Shown here: positions 16,952 through 43,881 of the stretch, piece by piece
Layout: each line of letters starts with the position of its first letter
Position numbering within the stretch: the stretch's first letter is position 1
NCBI GenBank assembly: GCA_050942995.1
Contig: JBMNOI010000001.1
Location: forward strand, 776-64,775
DNA length: 64,000 nucleotides
Reading direction: 5' to 3'
DNA from: Anaerolineae bacterium
Lineage (GTDB): Bacteria > Chloroflexota > Anaerolineae > UBA1429
Made by a program: the position numbers and the translations under genes
Notes under the pieces: model-generated
What the model was told of the DNA's origin: nothing
Seen by the model: only the letters and a program-made list of their open reading frames with translations
Databases searched by the model: none

Positions 16952-17280
16952 CCTTTCGAACGCCAGGAAGAGCCACGCCGGAGATCGCCCGGACGCCGGA
17001 TCGTTCGCCCTATGGGGGCAGAAGGCTGACGAAGGGCGGATGCAGCGCTACGCATTGCAAGAGGGCAGCGCGCTCTATGTCCTGCTGATCTTGAGAGCTG
17101 GCTGCCCATTACATCGGGAAAAATGAGATACAGCCACCATCGGTGGAGGAATAGGAATGAATAAATGACAATTATAATCAATTAGACAAGAAAAACAAAA
17201 AAACGGGCGGGACAAAACGGGGGGTGGCCTTTACACGGCGAGATCTACCGAGTATAATGAGGTTCGAGGGGAGTGAAACT

Positions 17281-18471
17281 ATGCAGAATAATGGTAACGG
17301 GCATGTCCTTGCCACAGGTTCCAAAACGTACCGTCGCTATAAGCTGATTGATCTCTTCGCAGGCGCAGGAGGATTTACGCTCGGATTCACGCCAGAATTC
17401 GGTCACCGCTTTGATATTGTATGGGCAAATGACATTAATCAATTTGCAGCAGACACATATAATGCTAATTTCGGCAATCACTGTGTTGTCGGAGACATCG
17501 TCGATCTCCTTAATGATCCTAAAGTCGTAATCCCGACTGCGGATGTGGTCATTGGCGGTCCTCCTTGTCAGGGCTTTAGCCTTCTCAACAAAAACCGCAA
17601 GGGAGATCCACGAAAGCAGCTATGGCGCCCGTTTTTGACGGTAGTTGAGCGATCAGAGGCCAAGCTATTTGTTATGGAGAATGTTCCTCAACTACTAGGA
17701 TCTAAAGAATATGATGAAATAAAAAAAGTAGCGGAAACCTTGGGTTTCAGGCTTACCGCAGCTAAGCTTTGCGCAGCAGATTACGGAGTCCCGCAATTAC
17801 GATTCCGAGCATTTGTGATCGGTTGTCGGTTTGCCGATCCTTCAGATTTCTTTCCCCCTAAACAGACTCACTATGATCCTGACAAAGAACCAGGACTATT
17901 TGATATAGTAGAAAGAAACAGCACGGGTAGAGTTCATACTTGGCGTACGGTTCGAGACGCGATTGGGGATCTTCCGCCACCTGAAGGCACGGAGATTCGA
18001 GATGAAGACCCTCCTCTGGATCTTCACTTTGGTCGATCTCCAACTGAGTTAAGCATGAAGCGATATCGAGCGATTCCCGAAGAGGGAATGAACCGGTTTG
18101 ATTTACAGCGTTTGGCTCCGGAGTTAACACCCAAGTGCTGGATTCGGAAAAAAACAGGAGGAACCGATCTATTCGGACGGCTATGGCGGGATAAACCCTC
18201 TGTCACGATCAGGACAGAATTCTTCAAGCCCGAAAAGGGACGTTACCTACATCCGGAACAGCACAGACCGATCACGCATCGCGAGGCGGCACGGCTCCAA
18301 TCTTTCCCAGACACCTTCCGGTTTCGGGGTAGTAAGATCGAGATAGCACGCCAGATCGGTAATGCTGTGCCTCCCATGTTGGCAGCACGAGTAGCGGATG
18401 CGGTCGTCGAGATTTTGGCTTTGGCAGAGGAGAATGAACCGATCAGACAGATGGAGATGCAACATCGCTAG
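17281..18471 (+). CDS. DNA (cytosine-5)-methyltransferase (Type II R-M methylase)
   Basis: Motif I DLFAGAGGFTLGF, motif IV GGPPCQGFS, ENV, QLRFRAFVIG, QIGNAVPP. AT-rich codon usage unlike the surrounding genes. Start at MQNNGNG after GAGGGGAG RBS. Confidence 0.9.
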   Translation: MQNNGNGHVLATGSKTYRRYKLIDLFAGAGGFTLGFTPEFGHRFDIVWANDINQFAADTYNANFGNHCVVGDIVDLLNDPKVVIPTADVVIGGPPCQGFSLLNKNRKGDPRKQLWRPFLTVVERSEAKLFVMENVPQLLGSKEYDEIKKVAETLGFRLTAAKLCAADYGVPQLRFRAFVIGCRFADPSDFFPPKQTHYDPDKEPGLFDIVERNSTGRVHTWRTVRDAIGDLPPPEGTEIRDEDPPLDLHFGRSPTELSMKRYRAIPEEGMNRFDLQRLAPELTPKCWIRKKTGGTDLFGRLWRDKPSVTIRTEFFKPEKGRYLHPEQHRPITHREAARLQSFPDTFRFRGSKIEIARQIGNAVPPMLAARVADAVVEILALAEENEPIRQMEMQHR

Positions 18472-18494
18472 GCTAGATATGACCGGATCGTTGA

Positions 18495-18522
18495 CCCCGC
18501 CGGAAACTTGGCGGGGTTTTTT
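18495..18522 (+). terminator. Intrinsic terminator after the methyltransferase
   Basis: CCCCGCC-ggaaactt-GGCGGGG followed by TTTTTT. Confidence 0.7.
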
Positions 18523-18548
18523 GTTACTTTTCTGAAACATGATGTGCA

Positions 18549-18770
18549 ATGATCTATCATGATTTAAAGCATGTTTTGGGACACAACGTGCAAAAGCTGC
18601 GCAAGTCGCTGGATATGACTCAAAAGGAACTTGCCGAACGCACGGGACTAAATCGTTCATATATAGCAGGGATAGAACGTGGAATGCGAAATGTGCGACT
18701 AAGTACCATAGCAGTGCTCGCGGCAGCCATGAATGTTGATCCAGAAGAATTGCTTAAGAAAGATAATTAA
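18549..18770 (+). CDS. XRE-family HTH protein, likely R-M controller (C) protein
   Basis: LGHNVQKLRKSLDMTQKELAERTGLNRSYIAGIERGMRNVRLSTIAVLAAAMNVDPEEL is a canonical HTH_3 domain. Sits between the methylase and the nuclease genes. Confidence 0.65.
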   Translation: MIYHDLKHVLGHNVQKLRKSLDMTQKELAERTGLNRSYIAGIERGMRNVRLSTIAVLAAAMNVDPEELLKKDN

Positions 18771-18781
18771 AGCACATTATT

Positions 18782-19666
18782 ATGGGCCCACAACGAGAAA
18801 AAATGAACATGAATAATATCTTATCCGAGATGCACGGCATCATGGACCGATTAAGAAAAGCCGAAAGTGAAGGCACAACACGGCGAGAACAGGTTCGGTT
18901 GATTGTGCAGCTCCGGCATCTCGTTGACCTCTGTGGAAAAGCGCTCTACCCGGAGTATAAATCCGCTCGTGCAAGGCTACTGGCATATATGCAAGAACAT
19001 GTGGGACAGCCTATTCACTCTACCGAACTCGCGGCTGTTGCCGGCATCAGCGAGTATGCCAGACGAATTAGGGAGTTACGGGTGGAGTTCGGTTATGATA
19101 TATTGACGATGGAGGATGATCCGAATCTCGGCGCGAATGAATATCTGCTAACTAGCATCGAACCCGACCAAGCTCGGGCAAGCCGCTGGGAATTGGCAAA
19201 CACGATCAGAAACCGGAAAGATTTGAATGCCTCTGAGCGAATTCTAGAGTTCCTCAAAGCAAATGTCGGATGCCCCGTCACAAGCGATGAGCTTCAGTAC
19301 GTTGCAAAAATCAAAGAGTTTGGGAGACGCATCCGTGACTTGAGAACAGAAGGGGGCTGGATCATCCACAGTGGCGTCTTAGGACGGCCTGATCTCAGGC
19401 CAACGCAATACGTGCTCGAATCATTGGAGCAAACAATGCCCCATGAACGGAGCATACCAGAGTCAGTTGCCAAAAAAGTATACGAAAGGGATAACTATCA
19501 ATGTGTTGAATGCGGATGGTCTAAAGCGAGTGCCGATCCGACTGATTCTCCCCGTTATCTACAGCTACATCATCGCGTTCCTCATGCAGACAAAGGCCCA
19601 AACACCGTAGATAATCTTGAAGTTCGATGTAATATATGCCATAAACAGGCACACACTACTCAATGA
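18782..19666 (+). CDS. HNH nuclease, probable Type II restriction endonuclease, with tandem N-terminal DNA-binding repeats
   Basis: C-terminal HNH/zinc motif CVECGW...LQLHHRVPHADKGPNTVDNLEVRCNICH. Internal repeats ...ISEYARRIRELRVEFGYDI and ...IKEFGRRIRDLRTEGGWIIHS. AT-rich like the methylase. Confidence 0.6.
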   Translation: MGPQREKMNMNNILSEMHGIMDRLRKAESEGTTRREQVRLIVQLRHLVDLCGKALYPEYKSARARLLAYMQEHVGQPIHSTELAAVAGISEYARRIRELRVEFGYDILTMEDDPNLGANEYLLTSIEPDQARASRWELANTIRNRKDLNASERILEFLKANVGCPVTSDELQYVAKIKEFGRRIRDLRTEGGWIIHSGVLGRPDLRPTQYVLESLEQTMPHERSIPESVAKKVYERDNYQCVECGWSKASADPTDSPRYLQLHHRVPHADKGPNTVDNLEVRCNICHKQAHTTQ

Positions 19667-19727
19667 CCAAGTATCACTTGTGAACAACGTAGATACGGCT
19701 GTAATTGTATTAAGCGCTTATCTATCT

Positions 19728-20336
19728 ATGCAACAAATGCGGTCATTCCCTTGGCGGGAAGAGAACGATCCATTCCACATCCTTATTGCGGAAATGATGC
19801 TTATCCGAACGCGTGCCGACCTAGTAGTTCCGGTTTATTTGCAATTCATCCGACAGTGGCCGCGGCCGGATGATCTGGTATGTGCTGCTGATGAGCAAAT
19901 TGCACAAACGTTAGTACCGTTAGGTCTGCCCCAGCGTATTCCCTTTTTCAAGCAAGCAGCGAAACACATCATCGAGAACCATGCGGGAGTGGTGCCTTCA
20001 AAGCGCAAAGACCTTGAGAAGATTCCCGGCGTGGGTCGATATGTTGCTGAGGCAGTCTTGGCATTTGCATTCAATCAACCCATTGTTCCCGCAGATGTGA
20101 ATGTACTGCGGTGGATATCGCGCATAACGGGGCTCGAGATGATCAGTAGCAGCAAAGGTTCGAAAGAGATACGATTACTGCTACCTAGGCTCGCCCCGTT
20201 GGGCGGACGGCAAGCGTACAAGTTCCTCGATTTTTTGCGTGAAATATGTCGTCCGAGAAAACCTGCATGTGATGAGTGTTGGATTCAGATGTTGTGTCAT
20301 TACGGTCGAAAAGCATTACCAGATTCGACCGCATAA
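19728..20336 (+). CDS. Endonuclease III family HhH-GPD DNA glycosylase with [4Fe-4S] loop (Mig-like mismatch glycosylase candidate)
   Basis: FHILIAEMMLIRTRADLVVPVYLQF. HhH motif LEKIPGVGRYVAEAVLAFAF...VDVNVLRWISRI. Cluster loop C-x6-C-x2-C-x5-C (CRPRKPACDECWIQMLC). Start placed at MQQMRSFPWREE. Confidence 0.75.
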   Translation: MQQMRSFPWREENDPFHILIAEMMLIRTRADLVVPVYLQFIRQWPRPDDLVCAADEQIAQTLVPLGLPQRIPFFKQAAKHIIENHAGVVPSKRKDLEKIPGVGRYVAEAVLAFAFNQPIVPADVNVLRWISRITGLEMISSSKGSKEIRLLLPRLAPLGGRQAYKFLDFLREICRPRKPACDECWIQMLCHYGRKALPDSTA

Positions 20337-20341
20337 ATCGA

Positions 20342-20370
20342 TTGACATCCACCCTCAGATATGCTATAGT
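20342..20370 (+). promoter_or_regulatory. Sigma70-like promoter (TTGACA-17-TATAGT) for the trpB2 leader
   Basis: TTGACAtccaccctcagatatgcTATAGT with 17-nt spacer. Confidence 0.55.
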
Positions 20371-20389
20371 AGCGACAATCGAACAGTGA

Positions 20390-20611
20390 AAGATGTAGAT
20401 CGGGAAGAGTAGCTGTCAAAGCGGGATTCAGAGAGCCGGGGTAAGGTGAGAGCCCGGTATCAGCGCAGACAACGAATGGGCCCGGGAGTCGCGCGGCCGA
20501 ACGCGCAGAGCGCTACTAGGCCGCGACGGAGTCGCCACCGTTATCAGGGCAGAGGGTATCGGTTGACCTCGTTGTGACAGAGGATCAACCCGTACCTGCA
20601 AGAGTGAGGCT
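20390..20611 (+). promoter_or_regulatory. Structured 5' leader of trpB2, T-box-like (tentative)
   Basis: ~250-nt untranslated leader. AGAGAG box, loop with UGG. Degenerate T-box-like GGCTGGCCCGCA overlaps the 5' side of the terminator. Confidence 0.35.
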
Positions 20612-20645
20612 GGCCCGCACATTAAAATCCGCCATCACGGCGGGA
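20612..20645 (+). terminator. Intrinsic terminator/attenuator in the trpB2 leader
   Basis: AAAATCCGCC-atcac-GGCGGGATTTTTTATT immediately upstream of the trpB2 RBS. Confidence 0.7.
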
Positions 20646-20821
20646 TTTTTTATTATATATGTCGGGTCGGGCTAAGAAGGGTGGCACCACGGGAGCAAAG
20701 CTCTCGTCCCTTGGGGACGAGGGCTTTTTTTATTGGCCGACACATCCCGGCGGGCCGAGAGCCATCGAATCGTAATGTTCCGGGTGTTCGGGGTGATCCG
20801 CGCAAACGAGGAGGGAAAAAG

Positions 20822-22180
20822 ATGGAGACGCGTTTCGATCTGTCACAGAGTGATATGCCCAGGCGTTGGTACAATGCTCAGGCCGACCTGGCCGAGCCGC
20901 TGCCGCCCCCGTTGCATCCGGGGACGCTGCAGCCCATCAGCCTCGCCGACCTGGAGCCGCTCTTTCCTAAGGAGATCATCCGGCAGGAAATGAGCCAGGA
21001 GCGGTATATCGACATCCCCGAAGAGGTGCAGGAGGTGCTGCGTCTATGGCGACCGACGCCGCTGCTGCGGGCGGTGCGCCTGGAAAAAGCCCTGGGCACC
21101 CCGGCCAAAATCTTTTACAAGTACGAGGGCACCAGCCCCACCGGGTCGCACAAGCCGAATACAGCGGTGGCGCAGGCGTTCTATAACAAGATCGCCGGTG
21201 TCCGCAAACTCACCACCGAGACGGGTGCCGGGCAGTGGGGGACGGCCCTGGCCATGGCCTCGAACTTTTTCGGGCTCGAGTGCAAGGTCTTTATGGTCAA
21301 GGTGAGCTATCAGCAAAAGCCCTATCGCCGCTCGATCATGCAAATGTTCGGCGCCAGCGTGACGCCCAGCCCCAGCACCGAGACCGAGGCGGGCCGCTCG
21401 ATCCTGGCCAAAGATCCGGATTCGACGGGTTCGCTGGGCATCGCCATCAGTGAGGCTTGCGAGATTGCCCTGCAGAACGATGACACCAAGTACTCGCTGG
21501 GCAGCGTGCTGAACCACGTGCTGATGCACCAGACCATCATCGGTGAAGAGACGATCTTGCAGATGGACAAGGCGGGGTTCGAGCCGGACGTGGTGATCGG
21601 CTGCGTGGGAGGCGGCTCCAATTTCGGCGGCATCGCCCTGCCCTACCTGCGACGCAACCTGCAGGACGGCACCAAAGTGCGCCTGGTGGGCGTCGAGCCG
21701 ATGGCCTGCCCGACGATGACCAAGGGCGTCTATGCCTTTGACTATGGCGATACGGCCAAAATGGCGCCGGTGGTCAAGATGAATACTCTGGGACACGACT
21801 TTGTGCCGGCGGGCATCCATGCGGGAGGGCTGCGTTACCACGGGGTGGCGCCGCTGCTGGCCGCGCTGCACCGTCAGGGGCACATCGAGGCGGTGGCCTA
21901 TCATCAGACGCCGGTGTTTGACGCGGCGGCTCTGTTCACCCGCACAGAGGGGATCATCCCCGCGCCCGAGTCGGCCCATGCGATTCGCGCGGCCATCGAC
22001 GAGGCCCTGGATGCCAGGGAAAAAGGCGAGGAGCGAGTGATCGTCTTTTGCCTGAGTGGCCATGGGTATATAGACCTGGGGGCGTACGATCTGTATATGG
22101 ACGGCAAGCTGGAGGATTACGCCTACCCGGAGGAAAAGATCCGGCAATCCCTGGCGAATCTGCCCCAGGTTTCGCTGTAA
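20822..22180 (+). CDS. trpB: Tryptophan synthase beta chain, TrpB2-type
   Basis: Track ORF 20681..22180. Start METRFD after GAGGAGGGAAAAAG. PLP-lysine region [13 protein letters not shown]. ~450 aa, typical of the TrpB2 subfamily. Confidence 0.8.
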
Positions 22181-22287
22181 ACGCGAGATCGAATCAGGAG
22201 CCGTTTCACAAGACGCCCCGGGCGCTTTGTGGGGCGGCTCTCTTTGTGAGACACAGGCCATACAGGAGCGGGTCGAGGGAGTGTGGC

Positions 22288-23865
22288 ATGACGAGACGTG
22301 TGCTTGTAACCGAGGCGCTGGACCGAACGGGCATCGAGATCCTGGAGGCGGCGTGCGAGGTGACGCTACGGCCGGGCCTGGCGCCGCACGAGTTGATCGA
22401 GGCGGTCGGCGGCTATGACGCACTGGTGGTGCGCAGCGCCACCCGGGTGACGGCAGAGGTGCTGGCGGCGGGATCTCGGCTGGTGGTCGTGGGTCGGGCC
22501 GGCACCGGCGTGGACAATATCGATGTGCAGGCGGCCACACGTCGGGGCATTGTGGTGGTCAACGCGCCCACCAGCAATACGGTCGCGGTAGCCGAGCACA
22601 CGCTGGCGCTGATGCTGGCTCTGGCGCGACACGTGACGGCCGCCGATTCGAGTATGCACTGCGGCCGCTGGGAGAAATCGGGGTTCGTGGGGACCGAGCT
22701 ACGAGACAAGGCGCTGGGGCTGGTGGGCCTGGGCCGGGTGGGCACGGCGGTGGCACAGCGAGCCCAGGGATTCGAGATGCGGGTGCTGGCCTACGACCCC
22801 TTTGTGTCTCCGGAACGGGCCGCTCAGCTCGGGGTCGAGATGGTGAACATGGACGATCTGCTGCGCCGGAGCGATTATATCTCACTGCACGCCCCGGCGA
22901 CCGAGAACACCCGGGGCATGATCGGGGCGCGCGAACTGGCGCAGATGAAGCCGTCGACCTATCTGGTCAACTGCGCCCGGGGCGACCTGATCGAAGAAGA
23001 GGCCCTCATCGAGGCGCTGAACGAGGGGCGCATCGCAGGCGCGGCGCTGGATGTGTTCGCCGACGAGCCAGAGGTGAACCCGGCGTTGTGCGGTATCCCC
23101 AACCTGATCCTCACGCCGCATCTGGGCGCCTCTACGGAAGAGGCACAAGCCGGCGCCTCTGCGCAGGTGGCCCGGCAGGTCGTCGATGTGCTGGAGGGAC
23201 GCCCCCCGCGCTATTCGGTGAACGTGCCGGTGACGTCGCCGGAAGAGATGGGCGCGCTAGAGCCGTACCTGGAGCTGGCACGATGCATGGGCCAGTTCTG
23301 CGCCCAGTATGTGCGAGATAGCATCGTCTGGCTGGAGCTGATCTGTGGCGGCGATCTGGTGGAGCACGACACGACGATGGTGACGGCAGCGGCCCTGGTG
23401 GGATTGCTCTCCGAGGCGGTGGACGAGCCGGTGAACATCGTGAACGCCCGATTGGTGGCGCGAGATCGGGGATTGGTGGTGCGTGAGGTCCGTACGCCCG
23501 AGGCACAGGGATTCTCTGGATTGCTGACGCTGCGGGCGGGCACGACGGCACAAGAGCATCTGATTCGCGGCACAGTGATGCGCCACCAGCCACATATTGT
23601 GTGCCTGGACGGTTACTGGCTCGATTTCGTCGCCGGGGGTGTGGTGCTGGTGAGCGAGCATCTGGAGCAGCCCGGAGTGATCGGCCAGATGGGTACCCTG
23701 CTGGGCGAGGCAGGGGTGAGCATCTCGTTCGTGCAGGTAGGTCGCGAGAAACGAGGTGGCCATGGGTTGATGGTCGTGGGACTGGACGATGCGCTCTCAC
23801 GAGAGACGATGGAGCAGGTGCTGGCCATGCCCAGCGTACAGTCGGCACGGGTCATTCGCATGTGA
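22288..23865 (+). CDS. serA: D-3-phosphoglycerate dehydrogenase with C-terminal ACT domain
   Basis: Start MTRRVLVTEALD. NAD motif GLVGLGRVGTAVAQRAQGFEM. C-terminal ACT. 525 aa. Confidence 0.85.
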   Translation: MTRRVLVTEALDRTGIEILEAACEVTLRPGLAPHELIEAVGGYDALVVRSATRVTAEVLAAGSRLVVVGRAGTGVDNIDVQAATRRGIVVVNAPTSNTVAVAEHTLALMLALARHVTAADSSMHCGRWEKSGFVGTELRDKALGLVGLGRVGTAVAQRAQGFEMRVLAYDPFVSPERAAQLGVEMVNMDDLLRRSDYISLHAPATENTRGMIGARELAQMKPSTYLVNCARGDLIEEEALIEALNEGRIAGAALDVFADEPEVNPALCGIPNLILTPHLGASTEEAQAGASAQVARQVVDVLEGRPPRYSVNVPVTSPEEMGALEPYLELARCMGQFCAQYVRDSIVWLELICGGDLVEHDTTMVTAAALVGLLSEAVDEPVNIVNARLVARDRGLVVREVRTPEAQGFSGLLTLRAGTTAQEHLIRGTVMRHQPHIVCLDGYWLDFVAGGVVLVSEHLEQPGVIGQMGTLLGEAGVSISFVQVGREKRGGHGLMVVGLDDALSRETMEQVLAMPSVQSARVIRM

Positions 23866-41207: not shown

Positions 41208-41280
41208 CAGGCGAGTAGCTCAATTGGCAGAGCGACGGTCTCCAAAACCGTAGGCTGCGGGTTCGATTCCTGCCTCGCCT
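41208..41280 (+). tRNA. tRNA-Trp (anticodon CCA)
   Basis: Acceptor AGGCGAG/CTCGCCT. Anticodon stem ACGGT/ACCGT, loop CTCCAAA. T-loop TTCGATT. Sits between rpmG and secE. Confidence 0.85.
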
Positions 41281-41424
41281 GCCTCGTGTGACTGTTAGGC
41301 ACCGCGCCAGGCTCGCGGCCCGTGAATTCGGCTGACCGCGAAGCGTTGATTGATCGAGTACCTGGCCCCCGGTGTCTACAATTTTGTTGGAAAAAGTGCG
41401 GGCCCTGCCCCGAGGAGAGCGCCC

Positions 41425-41673
41425 TTGGCAAAGAAAAAGTCGACGGCACCGGCTAAAACTCAGGGCCGCCTGGCAAAGCGATTTGGCGGGCTTGCTCGCT
41501 ATTTCCGTGAGGTGCGCGCCGAGGTCAAAAAGGTCGTGTGGCCGACCCGTCGTGCGGCGGTTAACCTGACGATGATCGTTCTGGCTGTTACTGTTAGCAT
41601 GAGTGCCGCTCTGGGCTTTATCGACTGGATCTTTTCGCGCATGTTCGCCTTTATCATCATGATCGCGAGCTAG
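41425..41673 (+). CDS. secE: Preprotein translocase subunit SecE
   Basis: Track ORF 41350..41673. Likely TTG start (MAKKKSTAPAK...) 9 nt after AGGAGA. C-terminal TM helix LTMIVLAVTVSMSAALGFIDWIF. Confidence 0.7.
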   Translation: MAKKKSTAPAKTQGRLAKRFGGLARYFREVRAEVKKVVWPTRRAAVNLTMIVLAVTVSMSAALGFIDWIFSRMFAFIIMIAS

Positions 41674-41717
41674 CGTTGACCTTTCAGCACAGGCTACAGA
41701 GCAGATAAGAGAAGGCC

Positions 41718-42374
41718 ATGATGGATCCGATAGAACGGGAGCCCAAGAACTCGGACTCCTGGGAAACTGAAGATACCCCCCTCGATGAGCCCACCGACGG
41801 CTCGGAACAGGATGTCGAGGCCGGGAACGCCCCAGAGGACGCGACCGACGTTCGTCGCGAGTGGTTCGTCGTGCACAGCTACTCCGGCTATGAGAACAAG
41901 GTCAAAAAGAACCTCGAGCAGCGCATCGAGACCATGGGCATGCAGGACAAGATCTTTCGCGTGGTTGTGCCCACAGAGGAGGAGGTCGAGATTCGCGACG
42001 GGCAGCGCCGCACCAGTCGGCGTCGTGTGTTTCCCGGATATATCCTGGTCGAGATGGTGATGGACGATGAATCATGGTACGTGGTGCGTAATACGCCCGG
42101 CGTCATCGGATTCGTCGGGTCGGGCACCCGCCCCGTGCCTCTGAGTACAGAGGAAGTTGACAAGATCCTCCAGCGCATGGAGGTCGAACAGCCTCACGTC
42201 AAGGTCAACTTTCGGGTGGGCGAGACGGTGCGGATCATCGAAGGCCCCTTTGCCGATTTTATGGCTATGGTGGACGAAATCTACCCCGACCGAGGCAAAG
42301 TGCGGGTTCTGGTATCGTTCTTTGGACGCGAGACCCCCGTGGAGATGGATTTTCTCCAGGTGGAAAAGATCTAG
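41718..42374 (+). CDS. nusG: Transcription termination/antitermination factor NusG (acidic N-terminal extension)
   Basis: NGN domain WFVVHSYSGYENKVKKNLE. KOW GETVRIIEGPFADFMAMVDEI. Confidence 0.9.
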   Translation: MMDPIEREPKNSDSWETEDTPLDEPTDGSEQDVEAGNAPEDATDVRREWFVVHSYSGYENKVKKNLEQRIETMGMQDKIFRVVVPTEEEVEIRDGQRRTSRRRVFPGYILVEMVMDDESWYVVRNTPGVIGFVGSGTRPVPLSTEEVDKILQRMEVEQPHVKVNFRVGETVRIIEGPFADFMAMVDEIYPDRGKVRVLVSFFGRETPVEMDFLQVEKI

Positions 42375-42434
42375 CGAATCTCAGGCATCCCGGGCGGGGT
42401 ACAGGCCCGCCTTGAGCAGAGAGGTATGGGTTAG

Positions 42435-42857
42435 ATGGCAAAAAAGGTCGTAGCTATCATCAAGTTGCAGATTCAGGCGGGCAAGGCCAACCCGGCACCG
42501 CCGGTGGGCCCTGCGCTGGGTCAGCATGGCGTGAACATTATGCAGTTCTGCAAAGAGTACAACGCCCGCACCCAGGCCGATATGGGTACCGTGATCCCCG
42601 TCGAAATCACCATCTATGGTGACCGTTCGTTCACCTTTATCACCAAGACGCCGCCTGCCAAGGATCTGCTCCTCAAAGCGGCAGGGCTGCAAAAAGGTTC
42701 GGCAACGCCCAACACCGCCAAGGTGGGCACCGTCACGCGCGATCAGGTGCGTGAGATCGCCGAGGCCAAGATGAAGGACCTGAACGCGATGGATATCGAA
42801 GGTGCCATGAAGATGATCGAGGGCACCGCCCGCAGCATGGGAATCACGATTGCCTAA
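42435..42857 (+). CDS. rplK: 50S ribosomal protein L11
   Basis: [35 protein letters not shown]. Confidence 0.95.
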
Positions 42858-42944
42858 TGTGATCGCCACGGCGCCTCATTTGGACGCCATTATTCGTGGG
42901 AGGGCGGCCTACACACCGCCCGATGGGACCACAAGGAGACAGAA

Positions 42945-43655
42945 ATGCCCAAGCACGGCAAGAACTACATGAGTAAAGTGGCCGGAATAGATCGCAATGC
43001 GGCCTATTCTCCACGTGAGGCGATAGAGATGGTCAAGAACATCTCCTTTGCCAAGTTCGATGAAACCGTCGAAGTGCACATGCGGTTGAATGTTGACCCC
43101 CGCCACGCCGATCAGCAGGTGCGCGGCACCGTGTCGCTGCCTGCCGGCACCGGCAAGACCGTTCGCATCCTGGTGTTTGCCGAGGGTGAATGGATCCGGG
43201 TCGCCGAAGAGGCGGGCGCCGACTATGCGGGCACCGACGAGTACATACAGCGGATTATGGACGGCTGGCTGGAATTCGACGTGGCCGTCGCCATTCCGCA
43301 GGTGATGGGCAAGATCGGCCGACTGGGTCGCGTGCTGGGTCCCCGGGGCCTCATGCCCAACCCTCGCGCCGGTACCGTGGTACAGCCCGATGAGATCGCC
43401 GACACCATCGAGCAGTTGCGCCAGGGGCGTGTCGAGTTTCGCGTGGACCGCACGTCGAACCTGCATGTCCCCATCGGCAAGGTGAGCTTTGAGGTCGACC
43501 AGCTCATGAGCAACTTGGCCGCTGTGATGGATGCCGTTATGCGTGCCCGACCGGCGGCCGTTCGCGGCGCTTATATTCGCCGCCTGACCCTTGCGTCGAC
43601 GATGGGCCCCGGCCTGCGTGTGGATATAGGTGAGGCGCAGAATCTGCGCGTTTAA
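42945..43655 (+). CDS. rplA: 50S ribosomal protein L1
   Basis: FDETVEVHMRLNVDPRHADQQVRGTVSLPAGTGK. Confidence 0.95.
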   Translation: MPKHGKNYMSKVAGIDRNAAYSPREAIEMVKNISFAKFDETVEVHMRLNVDPRHADQQVRGTVSLPAGTGKTVRILVFAEGEWIRVAEEAGADYAGTDEYIQRIMDGWLEFDVAVAIPQVMGKIGRLGRVLGPRGLMPNPRAGTVVQPDEIADTIEQLRQGRVEFRVDRTSNLHVPIGKVSFEVDQLMSNLAAVMDAVMRARPAAVRGAYIRRLTLASTMGPGLRVDIGEAQNLRV

Positions 43656-43881
43656 ACAACCGAACAACGCTCGGCCGTAGACAGCAGGTGCGTATTGACG
43701 CTTAATCATCAGCCTGCCGAGGCAGAGATCACGGGTTGCCCCTAAATAGCCGGAGAATCGAGCGAGGCGACCCGGCTTGAGGTAGATATTCCTAATTCAG
43801 GAACATGCCCCAATGAGATCTTTGCGTCGGTATGGCGCAAAGATCTTTTTTTTCATCTTACCGGAAGGAGGTGAGACGCTC
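43656..43881 (+). promoter_or_regulatory. rplJ-rplL leader region (L10 autoregulatory leader candidate)
   Basis: ~225-nt untranslated region between rplA and rplJ, the position of the L10 leader in other bacteria. Structure not verified. Confidence 0.35.

Follow-up and report, generated by a model that had tools for sequence, protein, structure and literature searches.

A tryptophan-specific T-box leader of trpB2 in an Anaerolineae bacterium encloses a conserved terminator-like hairpin in stem III

What controls the trpB2 gene of an uncultured Anaerolineae bacterium (Chloroflexota), and why does the leader of this gene contain two hairpins that look like intrinsic terminators? The locus lies in a 64,000-nucleotide stretch of contig JBMNOI010000001.1 (assembly GCA_050942995.1), here called the window; the leader, trpB2, serA and the tRNA-Trp gene are on its forward strand. 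A first-pass annotation, made from the sequence alone, had pointed to a T-box-like leader ahead of trpB2, keeping another leader type as a fallback. The Rfam search that it proposed confirms the class: cmscan at the gathering threshold reports a single T-box match in the whole window, RF00230 at 20387-20714, with 101.2 bits (E = 3.7e-21) against a gathering score of 93. The match spans model positions 1-219, the full model, and the fallback is therefore not needed. All the sequence-level defining features of RF00230 that were checked are present, and the leader, folded as 371 nt, is more stable than its shuffles (z = -5.2; 0 of 100 as good). Taking identity and mechanism jointly, the leader is very probably a full-length transcriptional T-box riboswitch specific for tRNA-Trp. 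Within its stem III it carries an extra, clade-conserved terminator-like hairpin, denoted T1; the regulated terminator further downstream is denoted T2. The account favoured here, a tRNA-Trp T-box plus a clade-specific pause hairpin, is considered quite probable as a whole.

As placed by the cmscan alignment and the fold, stem I (20393-20490) carries at its base a GA (K-turn-like) motif. It further contains the specifier-loop motifs AGUA/GAA, the bulge AGAGAG at 20430-20435, which had been recognized before, and the distal loop GGUGAGA at 20445-20451. The platform and specifier motifs (AGAGUAG at 20406, AGAGAG, GGUGAGA and GAA-UGG-G at 20474-20480) are aligned to the model at high posterior probability. 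The specifier codon UGG (20477-20479, in the context GAA-UGG-G) is complementary to the anticodon CCA of tRNA-Trp. In the fold and in the cmscan alignment it is unpaired, as the first-pass annotation had held, but it sits in the specifier internal loop of stem I, and not in a hairpin loop. The same two sources place stem II at 20491-20526 and the stem IIA/B pseudoknot region, with its F-box CCGUUA (20538-20543), up to 20543. The T-box sequence AGGGUGGCACCACG follows at 20678-20691; in the consensus used for comparison, AGGGUGGNACCGCG, it forms the 7-nt bulge UGGNACC of the antiterminator.

The antiterminator itself (20677-20712) appears in the cmscan alignment and folds with -15.9 kcal/mol and a canonical 7-nt bulge. 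It consists of the helices A1 (AAGGG/CCCUU) and A2 (ACGGGAGC/GCUCUCGU), and its bulge UGGCACC occupies 20682-20688, with the UGGC at 20682-20685 facing the 3'-GCCA of the tRNA. T2 (20697-20731) was found by the terminator scan as a 14-bp stem with 8 G-C pairs, including GCUCUCGUCCC/GGGACGAGGGC, followed by 7 U; its fold is -23.2 kcal/mol. The two structures have 20700-20712 in common and are mutually exclusive, and the minimum free energy fold of the segment containing both is the terminator. Folding thus bears out the expected antiterminator/terminator alternative for T2, whereas T1 has no competing structure, as described below.

The extent of the element differs from the first-pass annotation, which had described a leader of ~250 nt ending at 20645, with a strong intrinsic terminator just before the ribosome-binding site (RBS). 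A hairpin and T-run are indeed present at 20628-20652, but they are T1, and the regulated terminator is T2 (-23.2 versus -9.7 kcal/mol). The RF00230 match reaches 20714 and T2 ends at 20731, while the RBS lies at 20810 and the ATG at 20822, ~160 nt beyond the first hairpin. With T2 and the start region downstream, the leader is ~445 nt long from the predicted transcription start to the ATG, and T1 is not the last element before trpB2.

The presumed trans-acting ligand is encoded in the window as well. The tRNA-Trp gene at 41209-41283 has the anticodon CCA and the discriminator G41281, and it encodes just the CC of the CCA end. Given this discriminator, the mature 3' end would be GCCA, complementary to the bulge UGGC at 20682-20685. 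The earlier proposal that a UGGC of this leader pairs with the GCCA of tRNA-Trp is therefore right as to complementarity; the true bulge lies beyond the segment in which it had been sought.

From these features a mechanism can be proposed. Transcription would start near 20377, and stem I would present UGG to the anticodon of tRNA-Trp while its distal platform stacks on the tRNA elbow. If the tRNA is uncharged, its 3'-GCCA would pair with the UGGC of the 7-nt bulge and stabilize the antiterminator (20677-20712), so that T2 is read through into trpB2. With charged tRNA the more stable T2 hairpin (20697-20731) would form and transcription would stop. T1 would act earlier, pausing RNA polymerase just before the T-box sequence is made and giving tRNA-Trp time to dock on stem I; the pause would probably be aided by NusG or NusA, and T1 may perhaps also be a leaky first terminator. 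Once the 3' strand of stem III has been transcribed, T1 would be enclosed in a long stem III stacking under the antiterminator. The assignment of T1 as a hairpin-stabilized programmed pause, as a part of this scheme, is held with moderate confidence.

T1 was found by the terminator scan at 20628-20652. It comprises the hairpin UCCGCC-AUCAC-GGCGGG (20628-20644; -9.7 kcal/mol) and the U-tract AUUUUUUA (20645-20652), and is nested in the apex of stem III, where hairpin and T-run read UCCGCC-AUCAC-GGCGGG-AUUUUUU. The outer helix of stem III is formed by the 5' strand AGGCUGGCCCG (20607-20617) and the 3' strand CGGGUCGGGCU (20663-20673), which are paired in the fold and covary. Six homologous base pairs of this helix, counted at fixed positions, are 89% paired across 77 related leaders, with exchanges of G-C for A-U as in AGGCUG/CAGCCU, AAGCUG/CAGCUU and AGACUG/CAGUCU. 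A covariance-model alignment of stem III together with T1 (31 distinct sequences) has 87.5% of its cells paired, and in 10 of the 14 pairs both bases change. These values were not attained in any of 500 shuffles; slid partners are 28-49% paired. Being fitted to the model, this alignment leans to structure; the fixed-position count of stem III is free of that bias.

The presence of T1 was scored as a stem of 6 bp or more, of which 4 or more are G-C pairs, and then 5 or more U in 8 nt, all within the 100 nt before the T-box sequence. By this measure T1 occurs in 19 of 31 Chloroflexota trpB2 T-boxes gathered without reference to it, where shuffles give an expectation of 0.23. There are 47 distinct T1 stems among 74 leaders; the loop is mostly CAUCA(C/U), the tail mostly UUUUUUGU, and the U-tract is kept. 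The consensus of the module in the wider set is AGAGUGAGGCUGGCUU - [CCCGUUG CAUCA CAACGGG] - AUUUUUUGUUAA - ... - CAGCCUAAGUU - GGGUGGCACC. Closer to the window, in the relatives L001-L005 and in the window itself, an inner GC hairpin with a U-rich run after it lies within the Rfam stem III. CCGCC-AUCAC-GGCGG is found in four of these six, L002 has a variant, and L005 has the unrelated sequence GACCUCGUC-UGAC-GACGAGGUC-UUUUGUUUU at the position of T1.

The leaders in which T1 was followed come from two sets, and the genome set was started from the protein. In contigs representing one genome per species the closest TrpB2 proteins belong to metagenome-assembled genomes of Anaerolineae (Chloroflexota), with 73-80% identity, and the exact leader is present unchanged in four other assemblies, including GCA_012841665.1. 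A T-box sequence lies within 700 nt upstream in 30 of the 80 trpB2 loci examined; 17 of the 20 such loci that were scanned score above gathering with RF00230. A covariance-model search added six further leaders ~1.2 kb upstream, the distance being due to trpS (TrpRS), which is the first gene of a trpS-trpB2 operon there. Trp T-boxes of the T1 type at about this distance from trpB2 are seen in the Chloroflexota loci L070:2801-4001, L036, L055, L031, L007 and L019.

A scan of metagenomes with the pattern GGGATTTTTT, 10-40 nt, GGGTGGNACC gave 120 loci, some of them random hits. Since the pattern demanded GGGATTTTTT, this set is biased towards T1, and frequencies are quoted from the genome set only. 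About 45 of the metagenome loci have trpB2 downstream, and others have trpE-led trp operons or trpS. Only 4 of 16 metagenome leaders reach the Rfam gathering score, the rest falling below it because of insertions; seven of these, rerun in E-value mode, are all T-boxes at 1e-6 to 1e-18. The specifier proposed at the outset is kept in the homologous leaders: all 77 leaders of this stem III type have a Trp specifier, in 76 as GAAUGG. Every T1 of the Anaerolineae type seen belongs to a Trp T-box, before trpB2, trpS or trpE, although this pattern is to be read knowing that the DNA examined from the same genomes held no other T-boxes.

Two kinds of related leader were observed beside these. In L127, L169 (before trpD) and L155 (before a DAHP-synthase-like gene), T-box leaders of other lineages that look unrelated, a GC hairpin with a U run also lies inside stem III. 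Leaders of aromatic amino acid genes may thus have acquired this arrangement on more than one occasion. In a further type there is only one stem I, and behind it come two complete modules, each made up of stem III, T-box sequence, antiterminator and terminator, that stand only ~70-115 nt apart. It is seen in L083:3374-3560, in L091, L092, L095, L118, L125, L154, L157, L164, L187, L198 and L199, and also in L084, L179, L188, L191 and L119; downstream genes include an argC-like gene (L083), a class II Asn/Asp-type aminoacyl-tRNA synthetase (L084) and an ABC substrate-binding protein (L119). The 2025 survey of contiguous riboswitches does not list this layout, one tRNA-binding domain with two expression platforms, as a class.

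The segment at 20608-20619, GGCTGGCCCGCA, had been read as a degenerate T-box overlapping the 5' half of the first hairpin. In fact it lies 9 nt upstream of that hairpin and forms the 5' strand of stem III, pairing with 20663-20673 in a helix that covaries. As an alternative to the account given above, GGCUGGCCCGCA (20608-20619) would be a degenerate T-box whose UGGC binds the 3' end of tRNA-Trp and so controls the terminator at 20628-20652. The clade consensus AGGCUGGCUUCCCG does share 10 of 14 positions with AGGGUGGCACCGCG, the CUGGC of the 5' strand never changes whereas its partners in the helix do, and metagenomes contain leaders that combine one stem I with two full discriminator modules, so that a decayed first module is a conceivable origin. 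On the other hand, the isolated module (20608-20652) gave no T-box match in Rfam even at E <= 10, matching only the terminator ends of unrelated small RNA and leader models, and a canonical T-box sequence with its antiterminator and terminator lies 60 nt downstream. When the 5' arm of T1 was barred from pairing in 70 leaders, no recurrent alternative partner appeared and the median cost was 9.3 kcal/mol, about the whole energy of T1, indicating that T1 has no built-in antiterminator. With no structure competing with T1, there is nothing there for a tRNA to stabilize. The fourth base of the stem III UGGC also does not track that of the true bulge (C/U in L003-L005, U/C in L033 and L101), which is a weak point because U can wobble-pair with G73, and indeed 46% of Trp T-boxes carry U opposite a G discriminator (TBDB). 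Control of T1 by this segment is accordingly regarded as very improbable.

The CUGGC itself (20610-20614; columns 10-14 of alignment A2) is invariant across relatives. Its 3' partners drift (U-A/U-G, G-C/G-U), and G13 and C14 are often partnerless. This may reflect neutral drift through wobble pairs, or a second role for the strand.

A pause at T1 has precedents. The glyQS leader of Bacillus subtilis pauses at position 138, within the stem III loop (PMC5570125, PMC6197855, PMC13001445), and stem III has been proposed to serve mainly as a pause site giving stem I time for tRNA binding, with its weight in vivo called unresolved (PMC5570125). B. subtilis riboswitches commonly have NusG-dependent pauses after the aptamer and before the expression platform, and the signal of these pauses is a pause hairpin plus TTNTTT on the non-template strand (PMC11602163, PMC9963633). 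T1 followed by TTTTTT fits this signal. By analogy the pause would be expected near 20657 (motif at -11 to -6), 12-13 nt past the hairpin's foot. The U-tract is transcribed before the 3' strand of stem III, which therefore cannot stop T1 from forming. The best solved relative of the NusG encoded in the window (41718-42374) is the B. subtilis NusG of a paused complex (8ehq_G, E = 9.5e-68). In the alignment the window protein keeps Y11, W76, Y77, R80 and N81 and has the changes K97R and T86I; the roles of these residues are taken from PMC9963633. Retention of the residues in contact with TTNTTT lends indirect support to pausing at the T1 U-tract.

T1 shares with the glyQS pause its position in stem III, after the tRNA-binding domain and before the antiterminator, and with the NusG-dependent riboswitch pauses the combination of an RNA hairpin and, behind it, a T-tract in the non-template strand. 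The glyQS stem III, however, has no terminator-grade hairpin and U-run, and for the trpB2 leader pausing is a prediction.

Several points weigh against this account. We infer tRNA-dependent antitermination in the Anaerolineae source organism from features of its sequence, and several of the related leaders score below gathering (44-91 bits, with insertions), although their E-values are still 1e-6 to 1e-18. The proposed aid from NusG presumes that the Chloroflexota protein would promote pausing at T-tracts as that of B. subtilis does. Judged by sequence, T1 is a competent intrinsic terminator, with a GC-rich stem of 6-9 bp followed directly by 6-7 U, and computation alone does not distinguish pausing from termination there. 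Neither the conserved CAUCA loop on a varying stem nor the restriction to Trp leaders among those seen is explained by the pause model. T1 could instead be a real first terminator, constitutive or under a putative second factor, such as a protein reading the CAUCA loop. In that case two signals would be combined in the leader, or its output would simply be damped, in parallel with the two sequential terminators of the tandem Trp T-boxes of Bacillota. The terminator-grade sequence, the Rfam models matching T1 only through their terminators, the loop conserved where stems vary and the confinement of the Anaerolineae-type T1 to Trp leaders speak for this reading, and in Bacillota tandem T-boxes act mainly on Trp biosynthesis genes (PMC12452182). 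The folds with the T1 arm barred in 70 leaders nevertheless revealed no alternative structure, and no candidate factor was found. If T1, lying upstream of the decision point, were an efficient terminator without regulation, it would do no more than reduce expression and would leave the on/off ratio unimproved. T1 is also about half as stable as T2 (medians of -11.5 and -22.9 kcal/mol), which fits partial stopping or pausing. A dedicated first terminator is therefore considered unlikely, although it overlaps the pause model, as one signal is able to do both.

A more elaborate form of the same idea makes T1 a true first checkpoint, at which the Trp T-boxes of this clade would interrogate one stem-I-bound tRNA twice. 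While polymerase is held at T1, the still single-stranded, invariant UGGC of the stem III 5' strand might briefly capture the free GCCA end and pass it to the canonical bulge 70 nt downstream; alternatively, a putative factor that reads the CAUCA loop might decide passage of T1. We regard this as rather improbable; if true, it would be a one-aptamer, two-gate riboswitch related to the metagenome leaders with one stem I and two discriminators. About as improbable is a purely structural reading, by which the long stem III with T1 is an arm whose loop makes a tertiary contact, for example with the tRNA elbow/T-arm or with stem I, stabilizing the antiterminated complex, while the U-tract serves as a hinge that gives flexibility and any resemblance to a terminator is incidental. 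It would explain why the CAUCA(C) loop recurs in most of the 74 leaders though their stems differ. Stacking of stem III on the antiterminator, and variation in its length, are on record (PMC5570125), and lineage-specific T-box insertions with functional effects, such as stem Sa, are described as well (PMC9177973). A hinge, however, need not consist of 6-7 U exactly at the foot of a GC hairpin, which is the signature of a terminator or pause, and hairpin and U-tract persist in leaders such as L005 that have an entirely different hairpin sequence. Inspection of possible partners of the loop (K-turn region, distal loop of stem I, antiterminator loop, start-codon region, tRNA-Trp) yielded only inconsistent matches of 4-5 nt, with no complementary partner among them. 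Finally, the T1 inverted repeat, a perfect or near-perfect palindrome with a 5-bp centre, might be taken for a DNA operator of a dimeric transcription factor. This reading was rejected and is assigned next to no probability: the 47 different arms with compensatory changes indicate that pairing is conserved and not a recognition sequence, no arm sequence is shared across species, the neighbouring T-run is conserved on one strand only, and T1 lies ~270 nt downstream of the promoter.

In its general features the leader belongs to a known family in a known context, since Chloroflexi T-boxes before a 'trpB-like' gene and before trpE were reported in Dehalococcoides in 2008 (Wels et al. 2008, PMC2494555); phylum, amino acid and the kind of gene regulated are all alike. 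With known T-boxes (RF00230) it shares stem I, stem II, stem IIA/B with the F-box, stem III, the UGGN bulge and the overlapping antiterminator and terminator. It differs from them in a stem III of 67 nt, compared with the usual ~20 nt, that encloses T1, and in a further long hairpin that separates stem IIA/B from stem III. This hairpin, GGGUAUCGG...CCCGUACC (20549-20599; -22.7 kcal/mol), is typical of the lineage; its arms GGUAUC...GUACC recur in relatives, including L015, L048, L062 and L077, which have no T1, and because it is not modelled in the RF00230 consensus it lowers the Rfam scores of these leaders.

The tandem Trp T-boxes of Bacillota (PMC12452182) likewise place Trp genes behind two successive intrinsic terminators in one leader. 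There each terminator has a complete T-box, with stem I and antiterminator, whereas here a single stem I serves and the first terminator-like hairpin has no antiterminator. Stem Sa of the staphylococcal glyS T-boxes (PMC9177973) is similar in being a conserved insertion, limited to one clade, in the 3' (discriminator) half of a T-box that is canonical in other respects; it belongs to the terminator/antiterminator domain and is not terminator-like, unlike T1, which lies in stem III. In the literature on tandem T-box terminators and on trpB2 T-boxes no account of a terminator-like hairpin nested in stem III was found; the key comparative surveys were not covered, and an earlier mention is possible.

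The predicted promoter of the leader is of the sigma-70 type (20342-20370), as annotated earlier, with -35 TTGACA (20342-20347), a 17-nt spacer containing TG, and -10 TATAGT (20365-20370). It matches the consensus at 11 of 12 positions, has the TG extension and is the sole promoter-like site in 20000-21000; TTGACA and TAnnnT-type boxes stand at equal distance in the relatives L001-L005. TTGACA-17-TATAGT would thus function as the promoter, with transcription predicted to start near 20377.

Downstream, the RBS GGAGGG (20810-20815) and the trpB2 coding sequence together span 20810-22180, from ATG 20822 to TAA 22180 (452 aa). The product matches NCBIfam NF009057 (TrpB-like PLP enzyme; 724.5 bits, cut-off 366), TIGR01415 (643.8 bits) and Pfam PALP. 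By these matches the regulated gene is trpB2, a stand-alone tryptophan synthase beta-like enzyme, whose metabolism matches the amino acid specified. It is followed after 108 nt by serA, encoding D-3-phosphoglycerate dehydrogenase (22288-23865, 525 aa; TIGR01327, 615 bits; start read from the sequence). serA is possibly co-transcribed with trpB2; in the account favoured here the T-box controls trpB2 and, probably, serA. The spacer (22181-22287, 108 nt) contains a GC hairpin CGCCCC...GGGGCG without a clear U-tract. Adjacency of trpB2 and serA is common only to L001 and L002, the two closest relatives, so that co-regulation of serine supply with TrpB2 may be recent.

Directly upstream of the promoter three genes lie in a row on the same strand (17224-20336). 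The first encodes a C5 cytosine DNA methylase (17224-18471), the second an HNH endonuclease that has a winged-helix domain (18782-19666), and the third a small HhH-GPD Fe-S glycosylase of MutY/Nth type (19617-20336). The trio resembles a restriction-modification-like module accompanied by a mismatch glycosylase. The tRNA-Trp gene, for its part, opens a classical cluster (41209-43860) of tRNA-Trp, a secE-like open reading frame, nusG, rplK, rplA and the L10 leader (RF00557 at 43657-43860, 54.2 bits).

For the organism, an uncultured member of the Anaerolineae, the analysis places trpB2, and possibly serA, in the regulon governed by tRNA-Trp charging; as a T-box the leader is routine. More than 70 independent Trp leaders, however, keep a terminator-grade hairpin and U-tract in stem III while the sequence of the stem changes freely, and this site seems to be under selection as a strong pause or termination signal. 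Leaders with T1 offer a clean natural system for the question whether stem III pausing matters for T-box function in vivo, and they raise the question why tryptophan leaders repeatedly evolve two terminators.

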